Of a stretch of DNA of 64,000 nt, positions 21,702 to 41,484 are shown piece after piece. Each line of letters opens with the position of its first letter. The first letter of the stretch is position 1. The notes beneath the pieces are model-generated. The model saw nothing but the letters and a program-made list of their open reading frames with translations. It did no database searches and was not told the DNA's origin. The stretch is taken from the NCBI GenBank assembly GCA_047946875.1, contig CP181398.1, positions 777,041 to 841,040 on the forward strand, read 5' to 3'. Source of the DNA: Candidatus Kerfeldbacteria bacterium. GTDB lineage: Bacteria; Patescibacteriota; Patescibacteriia; UBA10025; JAHIVO01. The position numbers were made by a program, and so were the translations under genes.

Positions 21702-21726
21702 AATATCTACCCTCTCTCTTATATTT

Positions 21727-22881
21727 TTAATCTTCTTTTTTTGGTTGTGAGCGAACTTTAAATGCAAGAAATAATAGTAGTAAGATAATTATACTTATAA
21801 CTATTATTAAAAATAATGAATAAACTGTATCATCTCCAAAAAATGGACTCTTATTTTCAAATGGAACTATACCTAAATTTTTCTGTGTATAATTACCAGC
21901 TCGATCAAATGCAGTGACTGTAATAAGATTACTTCTACTTTGATCTTCTAAAATATATGGTGATGTGACATGGGTTGTAGATTTGTCACCTTCTTTAACA
22001 TCATAATAGTCAATACCGGAGCCTTTGTCAGTGGTAGAAAAAATTAAAATATATTTTCCATCATACAAAGTTGGTTCTTTTGAAATAACTGTATCAATAT
22101 CTAATGGTGCCTTACTATCAATCATAGCTCTCCTCTTACCAATCACTTCCCAATCTCCATCACCTATTTTTTCTTTCAATATAAAATAATATACTCCATC
22201 AGCTAAATCAGAAAAATTGACTTTACCGGTCGTTGATTCTCTATTATTATCAGGTTCTTCATCTGAATAATTACTCAAAATATAACTATAGATTGCATCT
22301 TTCTTTTGCTCCCACTCAACATTAAAATTATTATTTTTATACCAAGTACTCTCTTCTGGATGAGTAGAAGATTCAATATTAATAAATGTTGTATCGCTTA
22401 CACTAAATATTCCTGAAATTTTATTTAATTCTACCTCTGTCCCCAATCCATCATTTAGTAAGACTTTTGTACTTTCATTATCAAAATCTACTTCACCAAC
22501 ACCTGGAATTTTTGTTTTGAAAGTAATTGTTGCAATCTTACCATCTAATACCATGCTACCGCCGGGAATTCCGCCAGCTAATGAAATAATTCCCGCTGAT
22601 TCCTCAACAATCGGTTCTTTTATCCATAAAGTTAAAAAAGAGCCCCCACGTGATACTTTAACAACTTCCAATAAATCTGTTGGATATGTTATTGTTGTTT
22701 TTACCGCATTAATAATTTCTTGCTCACTATTCAAATGTATTTCAGCTAAAAAAGTTTCCCCTTTTGCAAATTCTTTTTGTACGGGATTTACAGAAATTAT
22801 TGCAGCCTGAGCTTGACTGAAAAATATTACACCAAAAATAATTAGTGGTAATATGATTAAAGTTTTTTTGAATGTAAACAT
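21727..22881 (-). CDS. Secreted cohesin-like domain protein with FN3/Ig-like module and a C-terminal TM anchor; paralog of the N-terminal part of the 19230-21701 gene
   Basis: ATG at 22881 (MFTFKKTLIILPLIIFGVIFFSQAQA). The track's 22908 is a TTG start. Cohesin-like signature EIHLNSEQEIINAVKTTITYPTDLLEVVKV...ISLAGGIPGG parallels the neighbouring gene. C-terminal hydrophobic SLFLIIVISIIILLLLFLAF is followed by KVRSQPKKED. Confidence 0.55.
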   Translation of the reverse strand: MFTFKKTLIILPLIIFGVIFFSQAQAAIISVNPVQKEFAKGETFLAEIHLNSEQEIINAVKTTITYPTDLLEVVKVSRGGSFLTLWIKEPIVEESAGIISLAGGIPGGSMVLDGKIATITFKTKIPGVGEVDFDNESTKVLLNDGLGTEVELNKISGIFSVSDTTFINIESSTHPEESTWYKNNNFNVEWEQKKDAIYSYILSNYSDEEPDNNRESTTGKVNFSDLADGVYYFILKEKIGDGDWEVIGKRRAMIDSKAPLDIDTVISKEPTLYDGKYILIFSTTDKGSGIDYYDVKEGDKSTTHVTSPYILEDQSRSNLITVTAFDRAGNYTQKNLGIVPFENKSPFFGDDTVYSLFLIIVISIIILLLLFLAFKVRSQPKKED

Positions 22882-22895
22882 AATATTATAACAAT

Positions 22896-23807
22896 TTATT
22901 CTGTCCAATAAAATAGCATGATACTAAAGTCAACAATATTTACTATACCATCACTATTAATATCTGCTCTTTCATTAGCAGGATTTGCTGTATTCCAATA
23001 AAATAATAAAATACTAAAATCAACTAAATTCACAAAAGTATCACAATTAATATCCCCAGGTAATGCGCCATCACAAATATTTGGCTCATCAGCCGTTACA
23101 TTAAATATAACACTTTTACTAAATTCTGAGACCGCATCATTTACAGGTTCTATGGCTTGAGCCTTTGCCTCATGAGAGCCTTCTGCTAAATCATCAGCAT
23201 CATATAACTGTATCCATCTACCATTTGTATCAGCACTGGCTATACTTACTGCAATATGTTGTTCTCCAGCCGCAGCCCCGACCACTGGTGATGTTAATGT
23301 TACATTTACTTCACTATCAGGCACAGTAGTCCCTGATAAAGTAATAGTTTCACCACTAGAAATATTGGTTTGATCAGCTTCGATTGTCGGTCCTAAAAAG
23401 ATACCGCTGATCGTAGTAGTAGTACCTGTAGTTAAGGTTAATGTAAAATTTGATTGTTTACCCTCTAAACCATCTTGATCAAGACCAATCACAGAAAAGG
23501 TATAAGTGCCTGGATCAATAATTGCAGAAACTTCAAAGATTGCCTGAGATGTTGTAGAAATAATAGACAAAATTGATCCATCCTGACTAAAAGTCACAGT
23601 AGCAGATGGATAAGCTATCCCTCGAAATACAACTGTAGTATCTGGATCTTCTAATGGAGGTTCAGAAGCAACTGTAGCTGTAACAATAACCTGCTGAGAA
23701 GATTGTGCATCTACATAAGATACAACAGAATATCCCGCGACCAATAAGATCAGCGGGATAATCAGATATACAAAAAATTTAATTAAGTTAGGTCTTCTTT
23801 TTTTCAT
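22896..23807 (-). CDS. Secreted Ig-like/beta-rich protein with a C-terminal type-I dockerin domain
   Basis: 303 aa. N-terminal signal-anchor. The C-terminus carries two calcium-binding dockerin repeats: GDINCDTFVNLVDFSILLFYW and ADINSDGIVNIVDFSIMLFYW (D-x-N-x-D-G-x-V-N-x-x-D-F). Confidence 0.7.
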   Translation of the reverse strand: MKKRRPNLIKFFVYLIIPLILLVAGYSVVSYVDAQSSQQVIVTATVASEPPLEDPDTTVVFRGIAYPSATVTFSQDGSILSIISTTSQAIFEVSAIIDPGTYTFSVIGLDQDGLEGKQSNFTLTLTTGTTTTISGIFLGPTIEADQTNISSGETITLSGTTVPDSEVNVTLTSPVVGAAAGEQHIAVSIASADTNGRWIQLYDADDLAEGSHEAKAQAIEPVNDAVSEFSKSVIFNVTADEPNICDGALPGDINCDTFVNLVDFSILLFYWNTANPANERADINSDGIVNIVDFSIMLFYWTE

Positions 23808-25835: not shown

Positions 25836-26852
25836 TTAAAATAAACCAGTTGTAACTAAGGTTACAGTGTTGGTATAAGTCCCGGCTTCAGTTGTACCAG
25901 CAATGGATGCCAAGAAACATAATGTAGTAGCATCAGTTGAAACAGCGCCAGTTGCAGCAGCAAAAGTCTGAGGAGAAGCAGTTAATGCTGTAGCATTTGA
26001 TGTAGTTCCTGTATCAGCACAAGATGTTGGACTCCAAATACCTATCGTATTACCTGAATCTGAAGATGAAGCACCAAATTCTTCTGTACCAGCAACGATA
26101 GTACCGCCAGCAGTATCAGAAATAGTATCAGAAGCAACTGAAGTTAATGTATTATCGTAATATACTGTAGAACTATATCCATTTGCAGCATTAGTAGTAA
26201 CTGTTGAAGTAATACCATCTTGTGAGATCAAGGAAGCTGATAATGTCCCAAGATCAATAGTATTGGCACTTAAAGCTACTGTAATTGTTGGTTCAACATC
26301 AGCCGAAACAACTACCTGATCATCAGCTATAATATCTACAGCTACTTGTTGACTATCAATTACTGCCTGAGCAGCAGTTCTAGTCTGAACGGTAATAACT
26401 CCAGTAGTACCGGTAGTTGGTGTACCAAGAGCACCAGCTCCTGAATCAGTTATTAAAACACCGTATTCAGTGGAGGCAGTTAAATTAGTAACCCCTGTAA
26501 TAGTTAGAGTATCTGGTGTACCAGCACAAGTGGCAACTAATGTACCTGGCAATGCATTTGCACCATAGGTTGTACTACCAGCAGCAATAATAGTGTCAGC
26601 TGTGCGACACCATAAACCATTATCAGCAGCCGGGAAAATAATATGCACCTCAGCCTCAGTACCACTATTTCCAGCTGGGACAGTAAATACGATATTATGA
26701 CTAACTCCGCTAGTCAAACTTTGTTTTTGTCGATTCATATGATCCTCGACTGTTTCCAATGATTCTGCTTTTGCAATTTGTGCTGGCAATAACATTACCA
26801 TAACAAAAATCGCCATAAACATTACCATGGACATTTTTTTGAGTAATTTCAT
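25836..26852 (-). CDS. Secreted T/S/G/A-rich surface protein whose C-terminal ~150 aa are homologous to the C-terminus of the 4784-aa giant protein (WxL-like cell-wall-binding domain, tentative)
   Basis: 338 aa. Signal peptide MKLLKKMSMVMFMAIFVMVMLLPAQIAKA. C-terminal TIDLGTLSASLISQDGITSTVTTNAANGYSSTVYYDNTLTSVASDTISDTAGGTIVAGTEEFGASSSDSGNTIGIWSPTSCADTGTTSNATALTASPQTF... aligns residue-by-residue with the giant protein's C-terminus. Confidence 0.6.
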   Translation of the reverse strand: MKLLKKMSMVMFMAIFVMVMLLPAQIAKAESLETVEDHMNRQKQSLTSGVSHNIVFTVPAGNSGTEAEVHIIFPAADNGLWCRTADTIIAAGSTTYGANALPGTLVATCAGTPDTLTITGVTNLTASTEYGVLITDSGAGALGTPTTGTTGVITVQTRTAAQAVIDSQQVAVDIIADDQVVVSADVEPTITVALSANTIDLGTLSASLISQDGITSTVTTNAANGYSSTVYYDNTLTSVASDTISDTAGGTIVAGTEEFGASSSDSGNTIGIWSPTSCADTGTTSNATALTASPQTFAAATGAVSTDATTLCFLASIAGTTEAGTYTNTVTLVTTGLF

Positions 26853-26969: not shown

Positions 26970-29900
26970 TTAATATAAACTTGTAGCAACTATTGTAATA
27001 GTAGAAGTATAAGCTCCTGCATCAGTTAAACCGCTAATAGAACCTAATATACATAATTCTGTTTGATGAGTGCTAACAACACCTGTGGCCCCTGCAAAAG
27101 TCTGAAGTGAGGTCGTTAAAGCGGTAGCATTCGATGTAGTCCCCGTATCTGCACAAGAAGTAGGACTCCAAATACCAATATCATATCCAGATCTCGATGA
27201 AGATGCACCATATTCCTCTGTGCCAGCTACGATAGTCCCTCCTGTAGTATCAGCAATCGTATTACCTATTGAAGTCAATGAATTATCATAATAAACCGAT
27301 GCTTGATATCCATTGGACGCATCAGTACTTACTGTCAGAGTCACTCCGTCCTGACTTACCAACGACTCTAATAATGTACCAAGATCAATACTGTTTGGAC
27401 TCAGGGATACTGTCATACCTACGAATAACCAACAATCGTTATTTTGAGAATTTACATTTGTCCCACCGGTAGCATCTATAGTATCTCCTCCACAAGCATA
27501 CGAATCTTGAACATCAGTATAAGTAACTATCTGCGTACCATCACTAGTCAGATTCCATTGAGTACCTGGAGTTGATGAGCGTAAAGTAACTAAGTTTCCA
27601 GAGGTGCCATTGAAACTTACGTTATTAAAAGTATAAGTACTACCCGCATTAAATTCTAATTGGGTATTGGCGGTATCAGCCGTGAAATTATTATCAACAT
27701 CAGCGGCTGCCGCAAAATCAACATCCGGATCAGAAGCGCCAGCATTTGTAATTGTAAGATTATAGAATCTATCGGAAGTACCAGTCATTTGACCCGATAA
27801 TATTTGCTGAGAAGAACCGTCTAGATAGACTGTACCGGACTGATCAGTGAAATTATCATTATTAGTCCAATCTCCCGCAAGATATATTGCATTGTCCTCT
27901 CCACTTTTTACATCTAGAGTACCACCGGTTATTAATAAATCATTATTTATATCAAGAATGGATTCAAGGGTAAAGGTAATATTATTTCCCGTATCATCAA
28001 AAGTAATATCATTGAAGTCGTCTGTAGTAGCGCCGGTAGAATCTATTGTCGGTGATCCGCTTGTAGCATCAAATGTTATAGTACCCGATCTGCATAAAAA
28101 TATATCATCATTATCCCAGCTTCCGCCAACTGTGATCGCATTATTTTCACCACTTACCGCATCCAGATGACCGTTTGTAATTGTAACGTTGTTAAGCACA
28201 ACTAACGGATCTTCTACTTCAACAATTAAATTATAAGTGCCAGCACCGTCATCTATAACGAGATTATAGAGTGAGCCAGTACCAGCGGTAATAAGATCAC
28301 TGGTTATATCACTCACAGAAGATGGTATATTAAAGGTTAAAGTAGAACCGACATTCGTTCCAGCGCTATTTAATAATGAAGCGCCTGACTGTAAATCAAA
28401 CTTACCATCTGTATTCATCTGTGTGCCATCTGTTTCTACATCATCATCAACATCCAAAGTACCGCCACCCGAGCCAGCATCAGTGGAAATAGTAATGCCA
28501 CCCAAACCAATATCAAGATCATATCCATTTGTATTAAGTATATCACCATCATTAATAGTTAGAGTTTTAGCTAATAAATCACTGGCTAGATCAGTGGTAT
28601 CCGGAGAAGTACCTATTTCCAAATTACCGACATCCTGCTGTGGTGAAGTATTGTCCGTAAAGGTCAAATCCCCATCCAGTATTAATTCTCCTGTTCCAGC
28701 GGTAGCGTTATTAAATGTCGTTCCGGACGCCAAGGTAAAATTACCTGCAGCATTGAGATTGCTATCTACTTCCTGCGTAAACACACCCGTATCGGCTATA
28801 TCAAACGTACCATTCACATCCATTGCATCAGCGCTAGCAACACTGCCAGTACCTGACACCTTAAAATTCTGCAATGTTTGGCTGGCTGAAGTAACGGTCT
28901 TTGTCGCGCCGGTCATGTCAATTGTCGATGTTCCAGCAGTGACTGTACCACCGGTCATATCAAGATTACCAGCCATGGTATGAGTAGCATTTGCCAGGGT
29001 AACAGAGCCTGAAAGAGTTAAATTTTGTAATGTCTGTGAGGCGGAAGTAAGGGTGCCAGTGCCATTCATTACCAAAGTATTACCTGAAGTAGCCGTGTAG
29101 GTTCCGTCAGTAAAATTCACATTACCGGAAACAGTCCAAGTTCCAGTGCCTGAGGTAATTATTTCAGATCCATCATCCGCACCGATGAAGTCAAAATCTC
29201 CCTCAATATCAAATGCTGGATTATTCGTCACGCCGGCAAACGTAACATTCTGTGTGCCGTCAGCTATGATATATAAATTACCGTCAATATCCTGGGTTGC
29301 CGTTGCAAGCGGAGTAATCGTGTACGGCGTGCTGTTATCATCATTAAATATTTCCACATCACTGCCATATGTGCGCGCGGGCATAGTCGTGGTATTGCCA
29401 TTTGATGTATCAAAGCGCACCAGTGAACTTAATGTACCTGCAGTAGGTATCGTGGTACCGGAATTAATAGTCAGACGGCCGGCGCCAGAAATCGTACCGT
29501 CAAGCGTGAAACCGCTACCGGTCCATGTGACCGTTCGGCTTGTTTCGATAGCAAGTGAATCTCCCGTATCAACATCAAGTGTATTGCTTACTAACGGATC
29601 GTCAGCCCCCGTATCAGTATCAACGGTGATCGTATTCGTCGTTGCACCGTCTCCAATGGTGAGATCATAAAATGTAGTGTCGCCCAAACCATTAATATCA
29701 TGGCTTGCCACGTTTTCACCGGTAAGTGTTACACTACCGGTCCCCGGGGTAAAATTTCCACTGTTGTTTGTCCAGTCACCCTGTACTTCCATTGCTTCAC
29801 CTTGTGCATCAAAATATATACCACTATCAAGTGTGTAGTTTCCCTTCAACACCAATAATTGCTGGCTCGCGTCATTACTCAATAAACACGGCGTACCGAC

Positions 29901-32900
29901 CGTACCGCGGCTGATTTGCAGATTATAAAATTCAGGCGCATCATCACTCCACTGGTACACCTGGCCTTGAGCAGAACTCGCGCCTGACGGATCATCAATG
30001 ACTATAGTCCCGCCGGTAACCGTCGTGGTAGTAAGTGGTTTCTCATTGTACACGATAAACGAACGGCCAGTTAATGTACCGCCGGTCATATTAAAAGTTA
30101 CTGTCTCTCCGCCGTCATTATGCCGCGCGAGTTCAATGGCTCCATCCGCAACAGTACTCGCCCGCACCGTTCCACCCGCCAGCGTGATTATCCCCTGATT
30201 CAAATTAATGTTAGTACCAACATCCACGCTGCCGTCATTGAAATTAGTAATCTGCGAATTACTTCCGCGCATGTTTAACGCACCCGTAACATCAACATTA
30301 GCTCCTGTATTGAAATTGAGAGTACCGGCTTCTTGCCAAATATTGCCGGCAACCGTCACTGCGCTTGCTATTGTTGCTGTACCACCATTAACATAAAAAT
30401 TATCCTTAACATCCACGGTTCCGCCACTAAACGAATTGGTGCCGCCGTTTATTATTAAGTCTTCTGTCGTACCATTACCAATCGTGAGTGTACCCGCGGT
30501 AACATTTATATTCCCGGCAGATGTTATATTATCTCCATTTACTGTTGCGTCGGCACTCACATTAAGTGTTGCATTCGCATCAATGTCTATATCCAGACCA
30601 ATAATCGATGTTGCCGTATCAAGATGAACTGTGGCATTGTCATCAATGTGCAGATTACCGCCAGTTGCGTCAGTGGTTACCATACCGCCAGGATCAAATG
30701 TATCACCGGTCCACGCATGCAGCTCCATGCCCGACTCTGTTGTCAGCGCGCCCGCAATAACCGCATACCGTATGCCAGCATCAGCATTATCACCGGTCAA
30801 TAACTTAGCGTTTGTCATTGGCCCGGCATTCTCATGTCGAACAATCATCCTATTTTGGTATAGATTAAGTCCGGAAATATTCGACGATATGTCAGCCGCT
30901 AGTGTTGCTGTAGTCGCATGTGGTGTTTCGCTATTATCAATATAGAGCACTATAGGATCGCCACCAGCTGTTGGATCTGTTGCCGGGATAGTGAACGTAC
31001 CACCTGCACTATCGCATTCATACTCGGATGCAGTTCCGCCGTTTGTTGCCGCGTGGACTGTCAATGGATCTGCGGAACAGTCATACACACTTATACCATC
31101 ATCACTGTAAATCGTTCCGGTCAACGTAATACCATCAAATATCCAGCAGTCGTTATTTCCGGAATCAGTGTTGGTGCCATTTGACGCATCAATCCAGTCG
31201 CCGCCGCACGCGTACGAGTACTTTACATCAATGTATGATACATCGGTCTGCGTGCCGGTTACCACCAAATTCCAGTCGCTGGTCGTAGAACTTTGGAACG
31301 TTATTTCATTTCCGACACCTGAAGAACCGGCCCAGTTGATATTTGGAAACGTATACGTCGATCCCGCTTCATATTCAACAGTAACGCCCGCTGTTGTAAT
31401 TGTATAGTTATTTTCGGTTTCAACGGCTGCTCCGAAATCAACAGTTCCGCCACTATTGGTAATAGTTAGGTTATAAAAATCAGAAGAACCTGTCATAGTG
31501 CCTGACAATGACTGAGTAGAAGAACCGGCCAAAACAACAGTTCCATTGTTATCAGTAAACGTGCCATTATTGGTATAGTTACCATTAATATCAAGTGTTG
31601 AACTACTGGAAGCAGATAGCGTGGTAGCAGTATCAATACTCACGTCTCCACTCACTACTAATGATGGATCGTTGGTATTCAAATCTACCGTGGTTGCGCC
31701 GGTACCATCTTGGATAAGTATTAAATCACCAGAGATTGGATACGACCCCGATGCGGCTGTAATAGAATTTGATGAATTACTTCCATACAACTCCACATCC
31801 CCTCCGTACGTACGGGCATCAAATGTAGTATTGGCAATATTACCAGCACTGGCATCATAGCGGACAATACTATTGATCGTTCCTCCCGTGCCAGGACCAG
31901 CGGATGTATCAGTAAACCTAAGTGTGCCAGCTCCTTCAACAGTACCTAAATTAGCAAAAGTTGAGCCGGTATGTGTTACTGTACGACCAGCGCCAATCGA
32001 GAGTGTACCACCCGCACCAAAATTTCCATAAGCACTACTGATTGTGAAATCCGTATTTATAACCGAGATAGCTACATCAGACGCCGAATCAAGTTTGAAA
32101 TCATAAAAAGTTTCCCCGCCAACATCTATAGTATTGTCAGCGCCATGCATTATAACTTCTCCGGTCCCTTCTATTAAATCTGTCAGATCGGCCTTAATAT
32201 ATAGATCACCATAAACACTTATATCGCCACTGATATCATAGGTGCCACCACTATCCGGATCGAGCGAAAGATTATCAAAACTTCCACCCCCCGACACAGT
32301 TACTGAGCCAGTATTAGTAAATTTAAATGTTGAATCCTCTGTCGTTTTATTAACTATAACCATACTTGTTATTGGTGTACCACTTCCTGACATTTCCCAT
32401 GTCTTAGCGCCACCTGCTGCAGCTGAAAGTTTAGCAAACCAAACATCGTCCCCTGCTCCAGCACACGTATCCCTTGCTAATGTATTTGTTATCTTGATAT
32501 CACCACTACCCGTAGCTGACAGTATTCGATCTCCACTACACGCCCCTATAATATCAAAATATAAATCATAAAATGTCCACGTACTACTATTGCCACCAAT
32601 ATTACCTGCAGCGGGCAGCCCAACAGTTACTGTCCCACCGGTCATTGTGATAACGCCATCACCTGTAATATCCCCGCCGTTGGCGGTAAGATCGTTTGAA
32701 CCGGTCAGTGTCGTGCCGGTACCAACGGTGACATCACCGTTTGTAGTCAGCGCATCAGCTAAGGTAATGGTGCCGGTACCGGATGTCTCAAAATCATACA
32801 GAGATTTACCCGCCGCGGTGAGTGAGGGAGTAACACCGTCCATTACCAAAGTATGCCCAGAAGTGGCTGTAAATGTATCACAATTAGTAAGGTCTACGTT

Positions 32901-35900
32901 ACCCTCAATGTTCCAGGTTCCAGTGCCGGTATTAATCGTGTTAGTAGACGCTCCGCAGGAGAAATTGCCACCAACGTCTAAACTGACATTATTATCAGCA
33001 CCATCAATCGTTACGCTGTTAGTCCCGTCACCAATTGTTAGGTTATTATTTATATCATTAGCGAGAGCAGAAGCATACTCAAATGTGTATGATGGTGAAC
33101 CTCCTGACGGTATTAATTCTAAGTTATAGTAAGATCCTCCAGATCCATCTCTGGCAATGTCTGTATCCCCAGTACCGGTGTACTGAAAAGTAGAAGTATT
33201 TCCTATTAACCTCCCCTCGTTAAAAAAAGGCATAGTCTCATCAGTAGTACCAGATCCTGAAAGAATCCATGTTTTTTCACCGGCATCCAATGTATGAAAT
33301 CGTTCTATTACCTCACAAAAATCCCAGGTTGTGATCAGCTGATTGGTAATGGTCATACTGCCAGTCCCAATAGCCGTCGTAGTATATTCACCACATGGAA
33401 GTTGCGTAAAAGAGAGATTATAAAATGTCCAGTTGCTGTCTCCGCCTATAGTCCCATCCGTAGACAAGGTTACCGTACCGCCGGTCATATTGACCGTACC
33501 ATCACCAGTCAGGTTACCACCGTGAACAACCAGAGAGCCAGTACCTTGCACGGTGGCACCGGTATCCACATACTGATTACCACCAGTGCCTGACGTGGTC
33601 ACCCCACCACCCGGATCATAGGTATCACCAGTCCAAATATGCAATTCAAATTCTGAATCAATAGTCACGTTATTTGAATCAACCTTAAACTTAATATCGC
33701 TATCACCTGTATCCCGATCGCCTGACTCAAGATTGGTGTTGGTAATAGACGCTCCAGTATCATTCCTGACAATGACTGCGGCCGCGTACACATCAACATC
33801 AGCTGTATCAGTTCCGTCAACCTTGAATGCAGTTGTTCCTTCATAGGTGCCGTGATCATCCAGGTAAATAGTGACAATATCTCCGCTTGAGGATGCAATA
33901 CTGCCGACTGAATAATCCCCATTGCCATCCGTAGTACCAAAATTCATATTATTACCATTAACATTCACCTGAACTAATATGCCAGAACCGGCATTCGTTG
34001 ACTTATTCTCCTGATACACCGTGCCACCAATGGTAATAATATCGCTAAAAAGCCAATTCGTATTGTTTCCACAATGAGTATTAGTCCCGTCATCAGCATC
34101 AATTTGAAAACCAGTATCTGTTGCATCAGACCGCGACACATCCACATACGAAACCACACTAGTATTAGCTACATCCAGAAGCCATGTGCCGGAAGTAAGG
34201 TTTGAATTTCTAAATACAATATCATTACCGGAAGAACCAGTCCAATCAATATTAGTGAACGCATATGTAGATCCAGAATTATATTCCACTTTTACGTTAT
34301 CATTAACGGTAAAGGTGCCGGTAGCTGTAGCTGCGGCCGCAAAATCAATACCAGGGGTAAATGAAGTAGCACAGCCAGAAACACTTCCAGTGGTATTAGT
34401 AATGGTCAGGTTATAAAAATCAGAGGAACCGGTCATCGTACCCGATAAGGTCTGTTGCACGGTACCGGCCAAAACGACTGTCCCGCTGTTGTCAGTAAAC
34501 GTGCCGTTATTGGTATAATCGCTCTTTAAAGTTAGGCTAGTACTGCTTGGCGCGGAAAAAATCGTATTAACGCCAATAGTGATAGTCTTGGTAAAATTAA
34601 TAGTTGGATCGTTTGTATTCAGATCAAAAGTAGTGGCTCCAGTTCCGCCCTGTATCAGTTCCAAGTCTCCATAAACATTATATGTACCCGCTGCTGATGT
34701 GACCGTATTAGAAGAGTTATTACCATATATTTCAACATACAGATAATCACGAGCTGACATCGTTTGGCTGTTGCTTGACGAATCAAAACGCACGATAATA
34801 TTAGTTGCAAATGCTCCTGTTGTTGGGAATGCGGCTGATGGTTGGTAGACCAAAGTGCCATTACCCATCACGTAGCCGTCGAAAGTAAATGATCCCGTAC
34901 TCGTTACAGTCAAAGAACGATCTATACTAATATACAAAAAATCATTAGTGTTAACGTCAAGCGTACCGGTAACGATAGGATCATCAGTGCCCTCTATTGA
35001 TACTGTACCTGCAGATCCATCACCAATAGTAAGATTATTAAACGTGGTATCACTTGAGCCATTTATTGCAGGAGAGCCTGTCATGGTAACGGTACTTGTA
35101 CTTGCTGTAAAGGTGCCATTATTATCCCAATTACCATCCAAGCTATATGTATTAGCTCCATCTGAGGCAAGTGTGCCATCAATACTAATAGTAACATTAT
35201 GCGCGTTCATCGTTCCTGCGGAATCCATAGTTAATGTATCATCAGCCAAAATATCTATGGTGTCGTCAGCATACGCACCATCTTCATCCACATTCAATAC
35301 ACCCGCATTGGCAGTATGCATGATATTGCCATTTTGATCATTATCATAAGAGCCCAGCTGGGTAACAGTTAATGTCACTCCAGTATCAGCACTTCCAACT
35401 GACAATACGTTCTGATTTAGTACCATGCCGGTAATATCATCCGCACCGTCATACTCTGTAACAGCAGTAGATTGATCCCCATCTGTCGCTGTGTCAATGA
35501 ATACGGTTATTACTTCTCCTCCTGACAAAGCTGGGTCCGTATCAACATTCCAGGCACTTGCGCTTATTACGAAACTATCAGCTTGCAACACACCATTGAC
35601 TGCAATTTTCACCGTACCGGAAGAATTTGATGAACCTGCAACATTTGTATTAGATGAAGGAAAAGTCCAAGCAGTATTATTGCTACAGTCGGTGTTAGTA
35701 CCGTCATCAGCATCAATATCCACACCGGGAGTAGCATCAGACCATGACACGTCCACATAGGAAACAACACTTGAGTTGGTCACATCCAAATCCCAAGCGG
35801 ATGAGCCCGTTGAACCTTTGAAGTAGATTTCATTTCCAGATGAACCCGTCCAATCAATATTAGTAAATGCGTAGGTTGATGTGGAATTGTACTCTACGTT

Positions 35901-38900
35901 TGCATTGTCATTAACCGTGAAAGTACCTGTAGCCGTAGCAGCATCAGCGAACACAATGCCAGCAGTAGTAAATGATGCGCAGCCCGTGACAATTCCGGAT
36001 GTATTTGTGACAGTCAAATTATAAAAAGATTCTGAGTCTGATGTTATGGTTTGTGTTGATGAACCATCCAAGACAACCGTATTTCCACTGGTGGCAGTAT
36101 ATGTCCCGTCTGTAAAATCAATGGCTCCAGATACAGTCCACATACCTGTTCCAGAAGTTATAATCCCAATTCCAGAACCACCACCACCATAAGCTAATAC
36201 ACTTGTAATATTTACTGTTGGGTTGTACGTTCCGCCGTCAAGAGTAATATTTTGCGTATTTTGCGCCGAGACATACAAGGAATTCGAAAAATTTAGAGTT
36301 TGACTTGCACCAGTACCTAACATAACTGTACGTGCATTGGTGGTGCTATTATTGTACACCTGAACCTGATGGCCATACGTACGCTGTGACAATATTTGAT
36401 CATTAAACGTAGCGTCCATCCTGAGCGACGATGAAAGCGTTCCAGTCGTAGGGAAAGCTGATGAAGGCTGATATGCAAAAAGTCCACCTCCTGAAATCGT
36501 ACCATCAAGCGTGAGTGAACCCGCATTACCAAGCGTAACAATATTTGAAACGCCAAGTGATAATGTATCACCCGAGTCTATATCAAACGTACCCGTAACA
36601 GTTGGATCTTCAGATCCACCCACTGTTACTGTCCCTGCGGTCCCATCACCAATAGTAAGATTATTAAATGTAGTATCACTAGCGCCATTTATAGAAGAAG
36701 TTCCTGTCATAGTGACTGTACTTGTATCAGCTGTGAAGGTACCGCCATTAGTATAATCTCCTGCAATACTTATAGCACTAGATCCTGCAGTAAACACGGC
36801 ACTACTATTAATAACTAAATCCCCTCCAATAGAAAGGGCTTCATTAGTGGTACCAAATGTTTGAGAACCGTTAATAGTTAAATCATTCGCAACATTGAAT
36901 CCCAAAGAATTCACATCAATAGTCGTAGTATCTGCAATCACAATATTATAGAAACTTACACCGGCCTTACGAATATCAATTCCTCCTACTGAATTATCAT
37001 CATCAATAATAAAAGTTCCCCCTGATATAGTGCCCCATCTAGCCAGCGCTGTATTCGACAAATTTATCTCCTCTGTGGTAATTGTACCTGATCCGGTCAT
37101 GGTAAAATCAAGACCTGTGTCATTTGGAGCCATATAAAAATATCCGGAAGGACCTACAGAATGAGTACCACCATTGAAATTGAAATCACCTTCATTTATT
37201 ACCCAGTATCCAACTTCCGTAACTACAGACCCTGCATTCAGATTTAATACACTTGTTGCCCCGTCAAGAGTAACTCTATCTAGAATATCCACATCAGCGC
37301 TACCACTTATTGTTGCCGTACCACCAGTCAATATAAAATCATCACCAATATCCGTGGTACCACCACTGATATTCACCGCACCTGATGTCATATTTAAATC
37401 TTCTGTAGTGCTATTACCAATTATAAAAGTTCCAGCGGTATGATTCAGAGTCCCTCCACTTACCAAAACTTCATTAGCTTCTACGATTGTAGAATTTTGT
37501 ACATGAAGCGTACCTCCGGATGGAACATCAATATCTCCAGCAATAACATTACTAATCGTATCAAGATAAGCAGTCCCTCTGACATCAAAATCTCCAGTTA
37601 CACTAGTCGTAGTAATCCTACCATTTGGATCAAAAGTATGACCAGTATATACAAAAAGTTGAATCCCTGTCTCCACAACCAAAGTATCAGTTATTGCATC
37701 TATAGCATCATAAAGCATATCTACTGAGTTTTGGTCATTATCATATGCATCCATATCGTCAACATTTATACTGGTTCCTTGCTCATGCCTCACCATTACC
37801 GTATTTTGATATATTCTCAAATTATCTCCGGTAACTATATCCCCTCCGTCACTAACAGTAACCGTATTACCCAATATTGATCCGCCGTCAATATAAAATG
37901 TCAGCTGGTCTCCTGCGCTGGTAGTAACTCCGGTAATGGAAAAATTACCACTAGAATCGGTTGCATCACAATCTCCGCCCGCAGTCGCATTTACAGCCAC
38001 ACAAACACTAGTACCTGTAGTAATTGGGGTTCCTTCAGTATCATCAGTATAAGCTATACCATCAAAATCATAGCCACCGCCACCACCGCCACACGATGTA
38101 CATTCAGCTAATATAAAATTAGTTTGAAGTGGATCATGCGCGGGGGCATTATATCCAGACAATGTAATATCATGCTTATGACCAGCTGTTGCAAATTGAC
38201 TACCTGCGCTTGCACTACCATCTATACCTGCTGAATCTCCTGAAGTCCCAACTGTATTTGAATGAGCAACTCCAGCACTACCACTAGTAGTACCTGAGCT
38301 ATCTGCTGTTTGGATATATCTGTTTTGATAAGGACTAGTGTTAGAGATAGTAGTCCAACCAGTTGGTGGGGTTCCGTCAAATAGAGCAATCATCCCAATA
38401 GGAACAGATGGTGGTGTACCATTTTGCTCATATAATTTAAGAGTTACATATTCAGGTACTGATGTAGCACTAGCCGTAGTAGTAGGAGTGCTAGGTGCAG
38501 CATGAGTATGAACTATTGCATCATGGACATTGGGAGTAATTCCTGAAAATACACCGACACTACCTGAACCAGCGTTAAGAGACCCCCAGGTAACTCCGTG
38601 TGTATGAGTATCACTTCCACCGGTCGTATGTGATGAGTCAAGTTTCACTAAGCGACTATCGGCCGCTGAAAAACGTACCCAAGGACTAGATGGTTCTGAT
38701 CCAGTCTTAAAAAAAGCGAAAGCATCAAGCGGTATAGTGCTTGGCGTGGAATCAAGTGAATCATAACGATAAAGATAATATGTATAATGTGCCGGATTAT
38801 TATCAGCAGCTGCCACAGTAGTAGTATTAGCTGTATGAGTATGAGCTCCTGTCGATATCAACGTACATCCTCTTCCACATATAGTATCTGGACCCGTACT

Positions 38901-41270
38901 ACTTGATCCACTACCAACGCCCGTAGAGAAAGTATGACTATGAGTTGCCGCGCCACCACTAGTAGAAAATGCAGATGCTCCTCTTACAAAATCACCATCA
39001 TAGGTTGTAATATTAGTCCAACCAGCTCCTGGCGTAGAATCAGCACCTAATAAATATAAATAAGTTGCATCAATAGCCATCTGCCATTGTCGTCCTTCAT
39101 CCCAAGTATCTCCTACTGAAGCTGGTCCTACAAAATAAAGAGCTGGACTTTCTTCTGGAGTTTTAAAATTATAAGTTACTTCTATAGATTCCCCTGCCTT
39201 AATAGTTCTATTCCAAGATAAGGTATTTAATATTTCTGTACCCGAATCATATTTACCCAAAGAAGCATCACCATAATCTTTTAATTCATAATCACTGTTC
39301 ACAATTTCTTTAATTTCACCAACGATATCTTCATAAGCAGTAACTTTTAATGTCATTGGTTGATATATGTAAGGAAATACCCTAGTTGGACCATCTCTCT
39401 GGATTGTAAATCTTGGCGATTCTTTGATTTGAAAAGTATCCGATATCGAATTGGTACCATTATAATGAGTAGCGGTAACATTAATTTGATAAGTTCCTGG
39501 AACATCGGTTGTATAAGTAGCAAAATAATCAGGTCCATGATATTCACCCTTAATCTGGCAAAATTCACTAATTGTTATAGTTCCATCAGCTGTTTTTTTT
39601 GTTATTACATTTCCATTTGGATCAATAATATCTAACACAACATCAGCATTACAAACTATGTCACCTGCATGATCTAGAACACCAATTGAAAAAAGTGTTT
39701 CCTGACCTATTTTTTGAATAGCAAAGTCAGGATTAATAGCTAATACCCCCCAAGTAAAGTCTTGTATTATTTCCTTTATCACACCTTCCTGGTCAATAAT
39801 CATTTTGACCTGATATTTGCCTGGTTTATCAAATTTCGCGTTATCAAATGAATATTTATCAGTTTTTATCTTACCTTTATCAACCTTTTCTACTGTGTAT
39901 GTTGCCTCAATAACCTCTCCTTTTGGATTTAATAATTGTATATCAGTCACTACTCTTTGTTTTGGATCAACTCCCAAAAATGCAAAAGATGATTCTTCTT
40001 CTACATCAACTTCAATTATAGGTTTTTCATTTACCGTCAGATCATTGTCTTCGATAGTAACACTTTGTTCTATTTCTGCTACCACTTTTTCAGCTTCTTG
40101 TAACTCAATGTCAAAAAATAGTCCATCTAAATATGCCGTTGATTCTTCTGCCCCTGGAACAGCATTATAATCTAATTTAACTTGAAACTTATTAAATTCT
40201 TCTAATTCATAGATATTATCAATATCAACTTTAAAATATCCCTCATTGGTTGCATTACTCACTTCTTCATAAAGAGAAATTGATCTAGCAATCTGCCAAG
40301 TATCTCCATCATCAACAGAATATGATAAAATTACCACATCTTCATTATCGGGAAATGTATCCGCAGCAAATGAGACATATAGTGAAATTCTGGTGATCAG
40401 CGCTGTATCTAACACAGAATCTGGAATGCTATATCCCCAAGCCTTGAAAATATTATTTTGATTCGGTACTACCAACTCTGGCTCAGCAATTTCTACAACT
40501 ATATCTTCTACTTCAGTGGCAACTTCAATCTCCTCAACTAGAGGATCTGGTTTCTCAATAATTTCTATTATAGTTTCTTCTGGTTCAGTTGTAGTATCTT
40601 CAATTGGCACTTCTGGTAAATCATTAACATCTGAAGTAACAACTTCATCTATCGTACCTACTGGAATAATAATTTCGTCTTCCTCTCCCAATACTTGAAT
40701 TGGCTTGTTGTTAAAAAAAGCAGAATTATCTTTTGTGAAATTATTTTTAGGAGAGTTGGATAATAAATCTACCTTCTTAGCATTTTCTGCACTCATCCAA
40801 CCGCTTACTTCTGTTGGCTCTAAAATAATATTATAAATTTTAGATGAGTTTTCATCCGCTTGGACCATAAATATATATGTAAAAAAAGTTACCTGAATTG
40901 TTAAAAATGCAAAAGCAACTAGCGACACCGAGTAAATAAAGACGGAAAACTTTTTACTGATCCATAATAATTTTATTTTTTCAAAAGACCAACCAGGTTG
41001 AATAACATACTTACTTACTTCTGGCTCAGGTAATTTTTCTTTATCATTTTCATTTCCAAAGTTTGATTTTTTAGAAGAAGGTAGTAATTCCAAATACAAT
41101 TTTTCTACTGTTTCATTTTCATATCGTCTATCTTTTCTTACTCCGATTCTTACTGCTTTTAATTTTCCCGTTTTATCCCAATTCCGGAGTGTGTTTGGAT
41201 GAATACTAAAGATCTTACTGACTTGATCAATAGTCAATAAAGTAGGCAAAGACTTAAAATTAACCCCCAT
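26970..41270 (-). CDS. Giant (~4766-4784 aa) cell-surface protein. Domain order: N-terminal MerR/excisionase-type HTH, TM signal-anchor, acidic linker, Ig-like domains, phage-tail-collar-like HxH modules, >3000 aa of T/G/N/S-rich beta-helix-type repeats in four large modules, C-terminal ~150-aa domain shared with the 338-aa protein.
   Basis: One uninterrupted 14.3-kb ORF. The track start at 41324 is TTG; the first ATG is 41270 (MGVNFKSLPTLLTIDQVSKIFSIHPNTLRNWDKTGKLKAVRIGVRKDRRY = HTH_17-like). The only TM segment is FSVFIYSVSLVAFAFLTIQVTFFTYIFMV, 110 aa further on. The module-terminal motif ...YTF.NIDW.GSSGN...SYVDV...GTNT..NN..W.F recurs four times. Confidence 0.8.
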   Translation of the reverse strand: MGVNFKSLPTLLTIDQVSKIFSIHPNTLRNWDKTGKLKAVRIGVRKDRRYENETVEKLYLELLPSSKKSNFGNENDKEKLPEPEVSKYVIQPGWSFEKIKLLWISKKFSVFIYSVSLVAFAFLTIQVTFFTYIFMVQADENSSKIYNIILEPTEVSGWMSAENAKKVDLLSNSPKNNFTKDNSAFFNNKPIQVLGEEDEIIIPVGTIDEVVTSDVNDLPEVPIEDTTTEPEETIIEIIEKPDPLVEEIEVATEVEDIVVEIAEPELVVPNQNNIFKAWGYSIPDSVLDTALITRISLYVSFAADTFPDNEDVVILSYSVDDGDTWQIARSISLYEEVSNATNEGYFKVDIDNIYELEEFNKFQVKLDYNAVPGAEESTAYLDGLFFDIELQEAEKVVAEIEQSVTIEDNDLTVNEKPIIEVDVEEESSFAFLGVDPKQRVVTDIQLLNPKGEVIEATYTVEKVDKGKIKTDKYSFDNAKFDKPGKYQVKMIIDQEGVIKEIIQDFTWGVLAINPDFAIQKIGQETLFSIGVLDHAGDIVCNADVVLDIIDPNGNVITKKTADGTITISEFCQIKGEYHGPDYFATYTTDVPGTYQINVTATHYNGTNSISDTFQIKESPRFTIQRDGPTRVFPYIYQPMTLKVTAYEDIVGEIKEIVNSDYELKDYGDASLGKYDSGTEILNTLSWNRTIKAGESIEVTYNFKTPEESPALYFVGPASVGDTWDEGRQWQMAIDATYLYLLGADSTPGAGWTNITTYDGDFVRGASAFSTSGGAATHSHTFSTGVGSGSSSTGPDTICGRGCTLISTGAHTHTANTTTVAAADNNPAHYTYYLYRYDSLDSTPSTIPLDAFAFFKTGSEPSSPWVRFSAADSRLVKLDSSHTTGGSDTHTHGVTWGSLNAGSGSVGVFSGITPNVHDAIVHTHAAPSTPTTTASATSVPEYVTLKLYEQNGTPPSVPIGMIALFDGTPPTGWTTISNTSPYQNRYIQTADSSGTTSGSAGVAHSNTVGTSGDSAGIDGSASAGSQFATAGHKHDITLSGYNAPAHDPLQTNFILAECTSCGGGGGGYDFDGIAYTDDTEGTPITTGTSVCVAVNATAGGDCDATDSSGNFSITGVTTSAGDQLTFYIDGGSILGNTVTVSDGGDIVTGDNLRIYQNTVMVRHEQGTSINVDDMDAYDNDQNSVDMLYDAIDAITDTLVVETGIQLFVYTGHTFDPNGRITTTSVTGDFDVRGTAYLDTISNVIAGDIDVPSGGTLHVQNSTIVEANEVLVSGGTLNHTAGTFIIGNSTTEDLNMTSGAVNISGGTTDIGDDFILTGGTATISGSADVDILDRVTLDGATSVLNLNAGSVVTEVGYWVINEGDFNFNGGTHSVGPSGYFYMAPNDTGLDFTMTGSGTITTEEINLSNTALARWGTISGGTFIIDDDNSVGGIDIRKAGVSFYNIVIADTTTIDVNSLGFNVANDLTINGSQTFGTTNEALSIGGDLVINSSAVFTAGSSAISIAGDYTNGGTFTADTSTVTMTGTSSINGASDTTFNNLTIGDGTAGTVTVGGSEDPTVTGTFDIDSGDTLSLGVSNIVTLGNAGSLTLDGTISGGGLFAYQPSSAFPTTGTLSSSLRMDATFNDQILSQRTYGHQVQVYNNSTTNARTVMLGTGASQTLNFSNSLYVSAQNTQNITLDGGTYNPTVNITSVLAYGGGGSGIGIITSGTGMWTVSGAIDFTDGTYTATSGNTVVLDGSSTQTITSDSESFYNLTVTNTSGIVTGCASFTTAGIVFADAATATGTFTVNDNANVEYNSTSTYAFTNIDWTGSSGNEIYFKGSTGSSAWDLDVTNSSVVSYVDVSWSDATPGVDIDADDGTNTDCSNNTAWTFPSSNTNVAGSSNSSGTVKIAVNGVLQADSFVISASAWNVDTDPALSGGEVITVFIDTATDGDQSTAVTEYDGADDITGMVLNQNVLSVGSADTGVTLTVTQLGSYDNDQNGNIMHTANAGVLNVDEDGAYADDTIDILADDTLTMDSAGTMNAHNVTISIDGTLASDGANTYSLDGNWDNNGTFTASTSTVTMTGSPAINGSSDTTFNNLTIGDGSAGTVSIEGTDDPIVTGTLDVNTNDFLYISIDRSLTVTSTGSFTFDGYVMGNGTLVYQPSAAFPTTGAFATNIIVRFDSSSNSQTMSARDYLYVEIYGNNSSNTVTSAAGTYNVYGDLELIQGGTGATTFDLNTNDPTINFTKTITIGVNTIFSAPSSTSLTLKSDYTNNGTFTDNSGTVVLAGTVQQTLSGTMTGSSDFYNLTITNTTGSVSGCATSFTPGIDFAAAATATGTFTVNDNVKVEYNSGSTYAFTNIDWTGSSGNDIVFRNSNLTSGTWLLDVANTSVVSYVDVSRSDATDTGFQIDADDGTNTHCGNNTNWLFSDIITIGGTVYQENKSTNAGSGILVQVNVNGNNMNFGTTDGNGDYSVGSIASSSGDIVTIYLDDHGTYEGTTAFKVDGTDTADVDVYAAAVIVRNDTGASITNTNLESGDRDTGDSDIKFKVDSNNVTIDSEFELHIWTGDTYDPGGGVTTSGTGGNQYVDTGATVQGTGSLVVHGGNLTGDGTVNMTGGTVTLSTDGTIGGDSNWTFYNLSFTQLPCGEYTTTAIGTGSMTITNQLITTWDFCEVIERFHTLDAGEKTWILSGSGTTDETMPFFNEGRLIGNTSTFQYTGTGDTDIARDGSGGSYYNLELIPSGGSPSYTFEYASALANDINNNLTIGDGTNSVTIDGADNNVSLDVGGNFSCGASTNTINTGTGTWNIEGNVDLTNCDTFTATSGHTLVMDGVTPSLTAAGKSLYDFETSGTGTITLADALTTNGDVTVGTGTTLTGSNDLTANGGDITGDGVITMTGGTVTVGLPAAGNIGGNSSTWTFYDLYFDIIGACSGDRILSATGSGDIKITNTLARDTCAGAGDDVWFAKLSAAAGGAKTWEMSGSGTPITSMVIVNKTTEDSTFKFTNTGSVTVSGGGSFDNLSLDPDSGGTYDISGDISVYGDLYIKADLTDLIEGTGEVIMHGADNTIDVGGETFYDFKLDSASDVAISVINTDFTISSAYGNFGAGGTLSIGAGRTVTHTGSTFANLGTVEGAGTLRFTDTSAGPGTGGTINSIVRYDASAGNIANTTFDARTYGGDVELYGSNSSNSITAASGSYPISGDLILIQDGTGATTVDLNTNDPSLVVSGDVSIDTATTLSASSSSTLDINGNYTNNGTFTDNNGTVVLAGSSTQSLSGTMTGSSDFYNLTITNSGGTVDFGAAVETENNYTITTAGVTVEYEAGSTYTFPNINWAGSSGVGNEITFQSSTTSDWNLVVTGTQTDVSYIDVKYSYACGGDWIDASNGTNTDSGNNDCWIFDGITLTGTIYSDDGISVYDCSADPLTVHAATNGGTASEYECDSAGGTFTIPATDPTAGGDPIVLYIDNSETPHATTATLAADISSNISGLNLYQNRMIVRHENAGPMTNAKLLTGDNADAGIRYAVIAGALTTESGMELHAWTGDTFDPGGMVTTDATGGNLHIDDNATVHLDTATSIIGLDIDIDANATLNVSADATVNGDNITSAGNINVTAGTLTIGNGTTEDLIINGGTNSFSGGTVDVKDNFYVNGGTATIASAVTVAGNIWQEAGTLNFNTGANVDVTGALNMRGSNSQITNFNDGSVDVGTNINLNQGIITLAGGTVRASTVADGAIELARHNDGGETVTFNMTGGTLTGRSFIVYNEKPLTTTTVTGGTIVIDDPSGASSAQGQVYQWSDDAPEFYNLQISRGTVGTPCLLSNDASQQLLVLKGNYTLDSGIYFDAQGEAMEVQGDWTNNSGNFTPGTGSVTLTGENVASHDINGLGDTTFYDLTIGDGATTNTITVDTDTGADDPLVSNTLDVDTGDSLAIETSRTVTWTGSGFTLDGTISGAGRLTINSGTTIPTAGTLSSLVRFDTSNGNTTTMPARTYGSDVEIFNDDNSTPYTITPLATATQDIDGNLYIIADGTQNVTFAGVTNNPAFDIEGDFDFIGADDGSEIITSGTGTWTVSGNVNFTDGTYTATSGNTLVMNGTGTLTSASQTLQNLTLSGSVTLANATHTMAGNLDMTGGTVTAGTSTIDMTGATKTVTSASQTLQNFKVSGTGSVASADAMDVNGTFDIADTGVFTQEVDSNLNAAGNFTLASGTTFNNATAGTGELILDGDLTFTDNTSPQQDVGNLEIGTSPDTTDLASDLLAKTLTINDGDILNTNGYDLDIGLGGITISTDAGSGGGTLDVDDDVETDGTQMNTDGKFDLQSGASLLNSAGTNVGSTLTFNIPSSVSDITSDLITAGTGSLYNLVIDDGAGTYNLIVEVEDPLVVLNNVTITNGHLDAVSGENNAITVGGSWDNDDIFLCRSGTITFDATSGSPTIDSTGATTDDFNDITFDDTGNNITFTLESILDINNDLLITGGTLDVKSGEDNAIYLAGDWTNNDNFTDQSGTVYLDGSSQQILSGQMTGTSDRFYNLTITNAGASDPDVDFAAAADVDNNFTADTANTQLEFNAGSTYTFNNVSFNGTSGNLVTLRSSTPGTQWNLTSDGTQIVTYTDVQDSYACGGDTIDATGGTNVNSQNNDCWLFVGMTVSLSPNSIDLGTLLESLVSQDGVTLTVSTDASNGYQASVYYDNSLTSIGNTIADTTGGTIVAGTEEYGASSSRSGYDIGIWSPTSCADTGTTSNATALTTSLQTFAGATGVVSTHQTELCILGSISGLTDAGAYTSTITIVATSLY

Positions 41271-41484
41271 TTTTTTTGGGTGCTTATTTTTTTTACCTAG
41301 TTTAAACACTTTAAATATATGCAAAACTTTTTTATTATTTTAGCTTTGCTTAAGTTAGCAAAAAATTTAACTTAACTTAACAAACATAACAAAACTATTA
41401 TATAATATTATTATGATTTTGTCCAATAAAAATAACTCTCATCATCTTTATAAATGATTCGAATGATTTAAATTATGATTAAAC

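Follow-up and report, generated by a model that had tools for sequence, protein, structure and literature searches.

The 64,000-nucleotide stretch of DNA analyzed here (the window; Candidatus Kerfeldbacteria bacterium, contig CP181398.1, positions 777,041 to 841,040) contains a giant open reading frame (ORF) whose product carries, at residues 748-1078, a conserved unit of three tandem modules built around His-x-His (HxH) motifs. The modules of this triple unit are homologous to modules of phage tail proteins, recur as a triplet in a large family of cellular proteins, and are modeled with confidence as one compact monomeric domain. We think it probable that the triple unit is a pseudo-trimer formed by a single chain, bearing two His-cluster metal sites on its axis as well as three variable loops. 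The family is large and unnamed; Pfam, NCBIfam and PHROG contain no model of it, and there is no solved structure for it. Judged from sequence comparison, the unit is common to giant surface proteins of Patescibacteria and DPANN and to phage tail proteins.

Residues of the giant protein are numbered from TTG as the start codon. The protein contains exactly five HxH motifs, at residues 795, 828, 907, 939 and 1049, all of which fall inside residues 757-1080. This segment contains 15 His in 324 residues (4.6%) versus 33 in 4460 (0.74%) elsewhere, 48 in total, and 41% of its residues are Thr, Ser or Gly. Shuffles of the segment gave a mean of 0.65 HxH motifs, with five or more in 0.015% of trials; because of this low frequency, and because the His positions are conserved across 171 homologous units, we conclude that the HxH stretch exceeds chance. 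A six-frame hmmsearch found no other triple unit in the window. The three modules comprise 113, 111 and 107 residues, share 21-25% mutual identity, and follow a common order: a hydrophobic strand (YLYLL/AFAFF/MIALF), P-x-x-G-W (P-W in module 2), an F/V-x-R/K-G-type turn and a G-G pair, followed by the first HxH, a Gly/Ser-rich stretch, the second HxH, a conserved Pro and a long closing strand of P-x-Y type. The features are located in the window as listed below, where percentages give the share of the 171 units that have His at each motif position.

26970..41324, minus: giant ORF, 14.4 kb, 4784 codons from TTG
38091..39083, minus: complete three-module unit, residues 748-1078 (alignments A1-A5, six-frame hmmsearch, AlphaFold2)
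38745..39083, minus: module 1, residues 748-860, with YLYLLG, P765-x-x-G-W769, F779-V-R-G, G790-G791, H795-S-H797, loop, H828-T-H830, P844 and closing strand 846-854
38412..38744, minus: module 2, residues 861-971, with P865, AFAFF872, W882, G902-G903, H907-T-H909, loop, H939-T-H941, P957 and closing strand
38091..38411, minus: module 3, residues 972-1078, with IGMIALF982, P986, W990, S994, G1015, degenerate first motif V1019-A-H1021, loop, H1049-K-H1051, P1065 and closing strand
38934..38942, minus: first HxH of module 1 (H795, H797), right after G-G; His 90%, 80%
38835..38843, minus: second HxH of module 1 (H828, H830); His 98%, invariant in alignment A4
38598..38606, minus: first HxH of module 2 (H907, H909); His 95%, 93%
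38502..38510, minus: second HxH of module 2 (H939, H941); His 99%, 98%
38262..38270, minus: degenerate first motif of module 3 (V1019, H1021); family His 89%, 85%
38172..38180, minus: second HxH of module 3 (H1049, H1051); His 99%, 99%

A preliminary description of this DNA had quoted six peptide strings between positions 38100 and 38960. All six are present, though only in the minus-strand translation of the 4784-residue ORF: TGAHTHTANT (residues 825-834), AIVHTHAAPS (936-945), GGSDTHTHGVTWGS (902-915), TAGHKHDITLSGYNAPAHDP (1046-1065), GMIALFDGTPPTGWTTIS (977-994) and DAFAFFKTGSEPSSPWVRFS (867-886). A plus-strand reading of 38100-38960 was ruled out, as the frame is full of stops. The HxH repeats reported there are real, but the list overlooked GGAATHSHT, which holds the HxH of residues 795-797, and the degenerate VAHSNT of module 3. 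The 'G.I..F...P.GW' segments are likewise real but number three rather than two, the first being YLYLLGADSTPGAGW at residues 754-769. The unit also begins ∼41 residues ahead of the range given earlier, and while its modular repetition had been recognized, the presence of exactly three modules as one conserved unit had gone unnoticed.

Family, phage relatives and predicted structure of the triple unit

A single-sequence search with the unit recovered eight proteins of 350-565 residues, down to E 3.5e-29, all of which share the three modules and lack Pfam domains; one of them is labeled Patescibacteria. An HMMER search of 1.84 billion representative proteins with a profile built from nine trimmed units (alignment A3) then matched 1950 clusters at E≤1e-3, 945 at ≤1e-10 and 484 at ≤1e-30. 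The giant-protein sequence was included in this profile, so its own score is not independent, and the independent support is provided by the eight matches of the single-sequence search. Nearly all profile matches span positions ∼3-327 as a single stretch, within carriers of 325-6807 residues. The sequences retrieved for further analysis contained 171 full units in 156 proteins, 38 proteins being longer than 2000 residues, and residues 748-1078 of the giant protein are 23-35% identical to 59 full-length members.

Labeled members derive from Patescibacteria group bacterium, Ca. Paceibacterota, Ca. Woesearchaeota archaeon and one 'Actinomycetota' metagenome-assembled genome (MAG). The closest relatives in the genome collection show 52% and 47% identity, the second being encoded on a 680-kb Patescibacteria scaffold. 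The 52%-identity relative (L005, CAZJUO010000063.1) lies on a 7-kb contig of a MAG labeled 'uncultured Gammaproteobacteria', which is probably a binning error because all other labeled members are from Patescibacteria or DPANN. Another member, P0005, sits among ordinary Patescibacteria genes, and P0017 is a 338-residue free-standing unit on a 137-kb contig, where it is accompanied by co-oriented genes of unknown function that include one for a baseplate-like protein. The unit is a member of a large cellular family and not a one-off phage graft. No match to the segment was found by tblastn among 50,697 phage records, and neither the segment nor its close homologues matched any NCBIfam or PHROG model; a profile search of PDB sequences returned only a spurious His-tag-like match (E 1.3).

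The six His of the second HxH motifs are each present in 98-99% of the 171 units, and all six occur together in 156. The first motifs have His in 80-95%. In 28 units residue 797 is instead Pro, and residue 1019, which is Val in the giant protein, is His in 89%. Six first-site His are found in 92 of the 171 units and five in 62. Trp769 (100%) and Trp990 (99%) are nearly invariant, Pro765, Pro844, Pro865, Pro957 and Pro1065 are conserved in 97-98%, and the G-G pairs in 80-95%. The spacing from HxH to HxH has a median of 28 residues in each module, with a standard deviation below 2, whereas the sequence of the intervening loops is variable (top-residue fraction 0.26-0.29, versus ∼0.5 in the cores). 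For 135 of 138 modules, the nearest neighbor occupied the corresponding position in a different protein, and module identity was 34% within a position versus 27% between positions. This same-position similarity indicates that the triplication predates the family and that the three modules are no longer equivalent.

The variable loop of module 1 in the giant protein contains a C-x3-C pair (ICGRGC, residues 816-820, ∼38865..38879, minus strand). An aligned C-x3-C is present in the closest homologue, P0001 (GCVIGC), and is absent from most others. The pair may form a local disulfide or provide additional metal ligands.

The phage connection was established through distant three-module proteins from the A3 search (P0013, P0019-22 and P0024), which display the pattern '...IW.GT.A.IP.GW.lCDG...TPDLR..F.KG...TGGS.THTHT...'. 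The Pfam Collar model (PF07484) was detected at E≤0.01 in four of 24 aligned proteins, and P0021 scored 31.2 bits, above the gathering score of 24 bits; T4 gp12, used as positive control, gave Collar at residues 344-400 (51.9 bits) and the receptor-binding domain S_tail_recep_bd (PF14928) at 433-525. Phage-type members match phrog_5795 ('tail protein'), phrog_1800 ('tail collar fiber protein') and phrog_8469. Residues 2-420 of P0024 align with positions 391-826 of the 968-position phrog_5795 profile (E 1.5e-34), which indicates that this phage family itself holds a triple unit, and tblastn of P0024 recovered annotated tail collar or tail fiber proteins of Vibrio, Ralstonia, Prochlorococcus and Synechococcus phages. 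In Actinoplanes phage phiAsp2, full phage-type units with four HxH per module are present in Pas28 (residues 732-1149, E 5e-88) and Pas29 (374-789, E 4e-68), which directly follow the large tail protein Pas27 in the tail-gene region; the depositors of Pas29 noted HXHY motifs in it and suggested that it may recognize a receptor. Profile-profile comparison by hhalign of the window-type (A3) and phage-type (A6) alignments gave 99.8% probability and E 2.3e-29 over 319 columns. When the phage-type module profile was compared with the gp12 collar (IPVGAIMMW...LP..W.FC.G...LPDMRGLFVRGSG), the alignment had a probability of 91% (P 1e-6), and in an extended, low-confidence alignment the G-G, the HKH and the C-terminal 'RPWNISLNYIIKV' strand of gp12 fell on matching module elements. 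Aligned globally to gp12, the phage-type module gave no convincing result (probability 8%).

Membership in PF07484 itself, as first proposed for the segment, was not borne out: the HMM (hidden Markov model) found no match in the whole protein up to E 1, and none in the 323-residue segment or the three single modules up to E 10. A Pfam search with module 1 returned only non-significant motif matches to Apex (E 1.2) and Phage_fiber (E 5.9). From the Collar core 'W.xCDG...Y.xLF..IG..YGG...F.LPDLRGR', the 'P.GW' and 'F.RG' elements are kept, and CDG and Y..L..IG..YGG are missing in all three modules. The notion that a metal-binding HxH forms the terminal part of Collar also required revision, as His445 and His447 of gp12 are located in the adjoining PF14928. 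The proposed relatedness to phage tail-fiber collar/HxH modules is upheld as remote homology by the A3-A6 comparison, the PHROG tail families and the gp12 collar alignment. On these sequence comparisons, the original tail-collar-like, phage-related lead is substantially right at the superfamily level.

Structure was predicted with AlphaFold2 (AF2) from two alignments. The A4 alignment of 24 sequences yielded a mean predicted local distance difference test (pLDDT) score of 76.7 and a predicted template-modeling (pTM) score of 0.74, with the HxH regions at ∼60-85. The deeper A5 alignment of 60 sequences yielded a mean pLDDT of 88.6 and a pTM of 0.85, and the 10-residue blocks around the HxH motifs reached 90-97, values at odds with a location of the motifs in disordered linkers. 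In the A5 model, 243 of 331 residues have a pLDDT of at least 90, poor prediction is confined to parts of the Gly/Ser loops, and the same succession of strands recurs in every module. For a chain of three modules, a pTM of 0.85 indicates that the modules are confidently placed relative to each other in what is predicted to be one compact domain. Foldseek searches of the PDB with both models returned nothing with a TM score above 0.12; the first (A4) model matched the predicted structures of Pas28 and Pas29 with E 1e-14 and 1.7e-12 (TMq 0.54-0.59).

Proposed architecture and its alternatives

We propose that residues 748-1078 constitute one autonomous extracellular domain composed of three anciently triplicated, non-interchangeable modules. 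Each module is a homologue of the 'collar strand + G-G + HxH + insert + closing strand' element found once per chain in trimeric phage fiber tips such as that of T4 gp12, and the three would pack round a pseudo-threefold axis within one chain. The second HxH motifs (H828/830, H939/941 and H1049/1051), which supply six His as one full conserved set, would direct six imidazoles to an octahedral Fe or Zn on the axis. The first motifs (H795/797, H907/909 and H1021) would form a second site, with five His in the giant protein because V1019 replaces a His. The metals would clamp the fold into a rigid knob, and the three 28-residue, sequence-variable Gly/Ser-rich loops would form an exposed, evolvable face, a candidate ligand- or host-surface-binding site of the membrane-anchored giant protein. 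Such a binding role is plausible by analogy with fiber tips and from the variability of the loops. For the metal sites there are viral precedents: in gp12 a Zn on the threefold axis is octahedrally coordinated by His445 and His447 of three chains (PMC3004832), and HxH-bound Fe is known from the spikes of phages P2, phi92 and T4 (as described in PMC4901313) and from T4 gp37 (as cited in PMC11705849).

The presence of exactly three modules per chain, fixed in number and order and bearing two sets of HxH motifs, makes a single-chain pseudo-trimer the most economical arrangement. Modules were counted with a single-module HMM in 171 proteins, and three per protein were found in 145/171, six in 21/171, and four or five in 0/171; the top-150 list of matches favors full three-module matches and under-samples relatives with one or two modules, which weighs against the argument from copy number, but proteins with four or five modules would have been caught despite the bias. 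The rare counts of one, two or seven are accounted for by truncated contigs, partly detected long phage-type modules and a few divergent proteins. Counted as contiguous runs, there were 173 runs of three modules and five of six. Two complete triple units occur in 15 proteins (P0025-P0035, P0038, P0041, P0045 and P0052); in P0026, P0028, P0032, P0034 and P0035 they are directly adjacent, forming six contiguous modules, which implies that the triple unit can duplicate as a block.

The main rival is trimerization of the giant protein, or of this part of it, into a homotrimeric fiber of stacked layers, in which each module would form a threefold collar layer across three chains and every HxH would contribute to its own His6 site, in the manner of T4 gp37. 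The solved precedents are without exception homotrimers, each chain giving a third of a site through one HxH (PMC3004832, PMC4901313), and the phage-type relatives of the unit are found within phage tail proteins. P0023, moreover, has a single module located at the end of a fiber-like protein. Nevertheless, an open stack should allow any copy number, and the absence of proteins with four or five modules, together with the position-specific character of the modules, disfavors it. The compact monomer model, with its pTM of 0.85, would also be unusual if two partner chains were required, and Pfam shows no coiled coil or trimerization motif in the flanking parts. We therefore regard a stacked homotrimer as unlikely.

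Besides P0023, four points limit the case for a single-chain pseudo-trimer that acts as a metal-stapled binding head. The over-representation of units that have lost at least four first-site His (6 observed versus 0.3 expected), which speaks in its favor, is uncorrected for phylogeny. The AF2 models were computed without metals, and the His clustering and pseudo-threefold packing are suggested indirectly by the pTM of 0.85 and the HxH pLDDT of 90-97. The module profile of the close family aligns with gp12 over the first strand only (20-24 columns, P 7e-4 to 9e-5), so the Collar link rests on intermediates. Finally, the triple unit lies close to the membrane anchor, within the proximal quarter of the giant protein and away from its distal end, a poor fit to a receptor-binding tip.

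A catalytic or substrate-binding metal center, in which the His clusters would serve as a hydrolase or oxidase active site acting on host cell-wall polymers, is in our judgment very improbable. HxH is known from metal-dependent hydrolases, cell-envelope genes (GT2, LytR-CpsA-Psr) adjoin the giant gene, and the sole PDB sequence match was to the His tag/HxH region of an organophosphorus hydrolase; that match is non-significant (E 1.3), however, and no enzyme family was matched in Pfam, NCBIfam or the PDB. Columns conserved at 70% or more hold no Asp, Glu, Cys or Lys beside His, and the conserved set is threefold-repeated, all-beta and fiber-tip-like. A compositional accident or a loosely structured, His-rich metal sponge lacking a defined fold, which the 41% Thr+Ser+Gly content and the pLDDT of only 60-85 over the HxH regions in the shallow-alignment model might have suggested, is effectively refuted by the ∼1950 homologous clusters, the position-specific His conservation of 98-99%, the motif pLDDT of 90-97 with the deeper alignment, and the shuffle P of 1.5e-4. 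A compositional artefact and an enzyme active site were thus both rejected as readings of the triple unit.

A broader and more tentative possibility, which we think rather unlikely as a whole, is that ultrasmall episymbionts (Patescibacteria and DPANN such as Woesearchaeota) domesticated a phage receptor-binding tip. A trimeric collar/HxH module, fused into a metal-stapled, single-chain pseudo-trimer, would then be a variable host-recognition head present once or twice per giant surface protein, and a new fold family of ∼2000 clusters that sets host choice. To our knowledge, the host-attachment mechanisms of Patescibacteria and DPANN are largely unknown, and defining the family would annotate a recurrent piece of their 'dark' giant surface proteins. 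If the unit is a single-chain pseudo-trimer with axial His6 sites, it would represent a clear case in which a homotrimeric viral fiber tip became a monomeric domain via triplication, and would provide a scaffold, compact and probably very stable, that carries three variable loops. The link between surface proteins and phage tails through Pas28 and Pas29 of phiAsp2 bears on gene flow between phages and symbionts and on the direction of transfer.

The giant protein and its neighborhood

TTG is doubtful as the start of the giant ORF, and an ATG 18 codons into the frame is more likely. The protein has one hydrophobic segment (residues ∼119-154), a putative membrane anchor, ∼40 residues after an N-terminal helix-turn-helix; the ∼4600 Thr/Gly/Ser/Asn-rich residues beyond it are presumably extracellular. 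Pfam searches of the whole protein matched no adhesin family and nothing in the Thr/Gly/Ser/Asn-rich remainder. The combination of a DNA-binding-like cytoplasmic head with a 4600-residue extracellular protein is an odd fusion. Further features of the giant protein and of the genes that follow it are located as follows.

41094..41240, minus: MerR_1/HTH_17-type helix-turn-helix, residues 29-77 (Pfam, MerR_1 24.3 bits, cutoff 21.6)
26970..38090, minus: Thr/Gly/Asn/Ser-rich region of ∼3500 residues with recurring motifs, residues ∼1085-4640
26970..27416, minus: C-terminal domain, residues 4637-4784
25836..26852, minus: 338-residue ORF directly downstream of the giant gene
22896..23807 and 19230..21767, minus: two proteins, one of 303 residues (type I dockerin domain, E 1.1e-7, and a weak Big_13 match) and one of 845 residues (CarboxypepD_reg domains)
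5308..15252, minus: second giant ORF, 3314 residues, on the same strand ∼12 kb downstream of the first

Within the region of recurring motifs, TFNNLTIGDG was found at residues 1552 and 2094, FYNLTITN at 2303, 3283 and 4520, NIDWTGSSGN at 1822 and 2358, and DADDGTNT at 1871 and 2409. Residues ∼1085-4640 gave zero Pfam matches and zero self-BLAST pairs at E≤1e-20, and from their sequence are probably a diverged beta-helix-like repeat region. The last 149 residues of the 338-residue ORF are 70% identical to the C-terminal domain of the giant protein. Pfam returned nothing significant for this common domain, which may serve in anchoring or sorting, or may be a cassette through which C-termini are exchanged.

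The genes adjoining the giant ORF are cellular and encode Der GTPase, HisRS, a LytR-CpsA-Psr protein and a GT2 glycosyltransferase. The Der sequence is identical to XOU93994.1 of a Candidatus Kerfeldbacteria MAG, in keeping with a Patescibacteria origin of the window. The second giant ORF lacks the triple unit, and BLAST at E≤1e-5 aligned no part of it with the first giant protein. The two giant genes are separated by a run of same-strand genes whose members, beyond the dockerin and CarboxypepD_reg proteins, have no Pfam match. Encountering a dockerin in the Patescibacteria suggests that surface structures here are assembled in the cohesin-dockerin manner.

Comparison with known systems

Collar proteins of the MdpB (microcystin-dependent protein) type are bacterial, non-phage proteins in which a collar-type module is followed by a His motif; they contain a single module and are matched by PF07484. 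T4 gp12, whose C-terminal region is represented by PDB entries 1H6W and 1OCY, resembles the triple unit in the order of its elements: a hydrophobic strand with P..W, 'RG-F-x-RG', G-G, HxH, an insert and a closing 'P-x-(Y/W)...I' strand. The two differ in that gp12 has one module per chain and is a homotrimer, whereas the triple unit has three diverged modules in one chain. The gp12 insert is ∼100 residues long and there is one HxH per module, as compared with ∼50 residues and two HxH per module in the triple unit, which also lacks the 'CDG...yp.L...G..YGG...LPD' part of Collar and is matched by neither PF07484 nor PF14928.

The T4 gp37 needle and the spike apices of P2 gpV and phi92 gp138 share with the proposed architecture the use of HxH, with six imidazoles coordinating an octahedral Fe on a threefold axis (PMC4901313, PMC11705849). 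These proteins are intertwined homotrimeric beta-helices with no collar strand, and the triple unit shows no significant sequence or fold match to them. Pas28 and Pas29 of phiAsp2 and the phrog_5795 family possess the full three-module, single-chain unit. Their modules are longer (130-160 residues), keep 'W.lCDG..tPDLR' and carry four HxH each, whereas the window-type family has no PHROG match and is encoded in cellular genomes.

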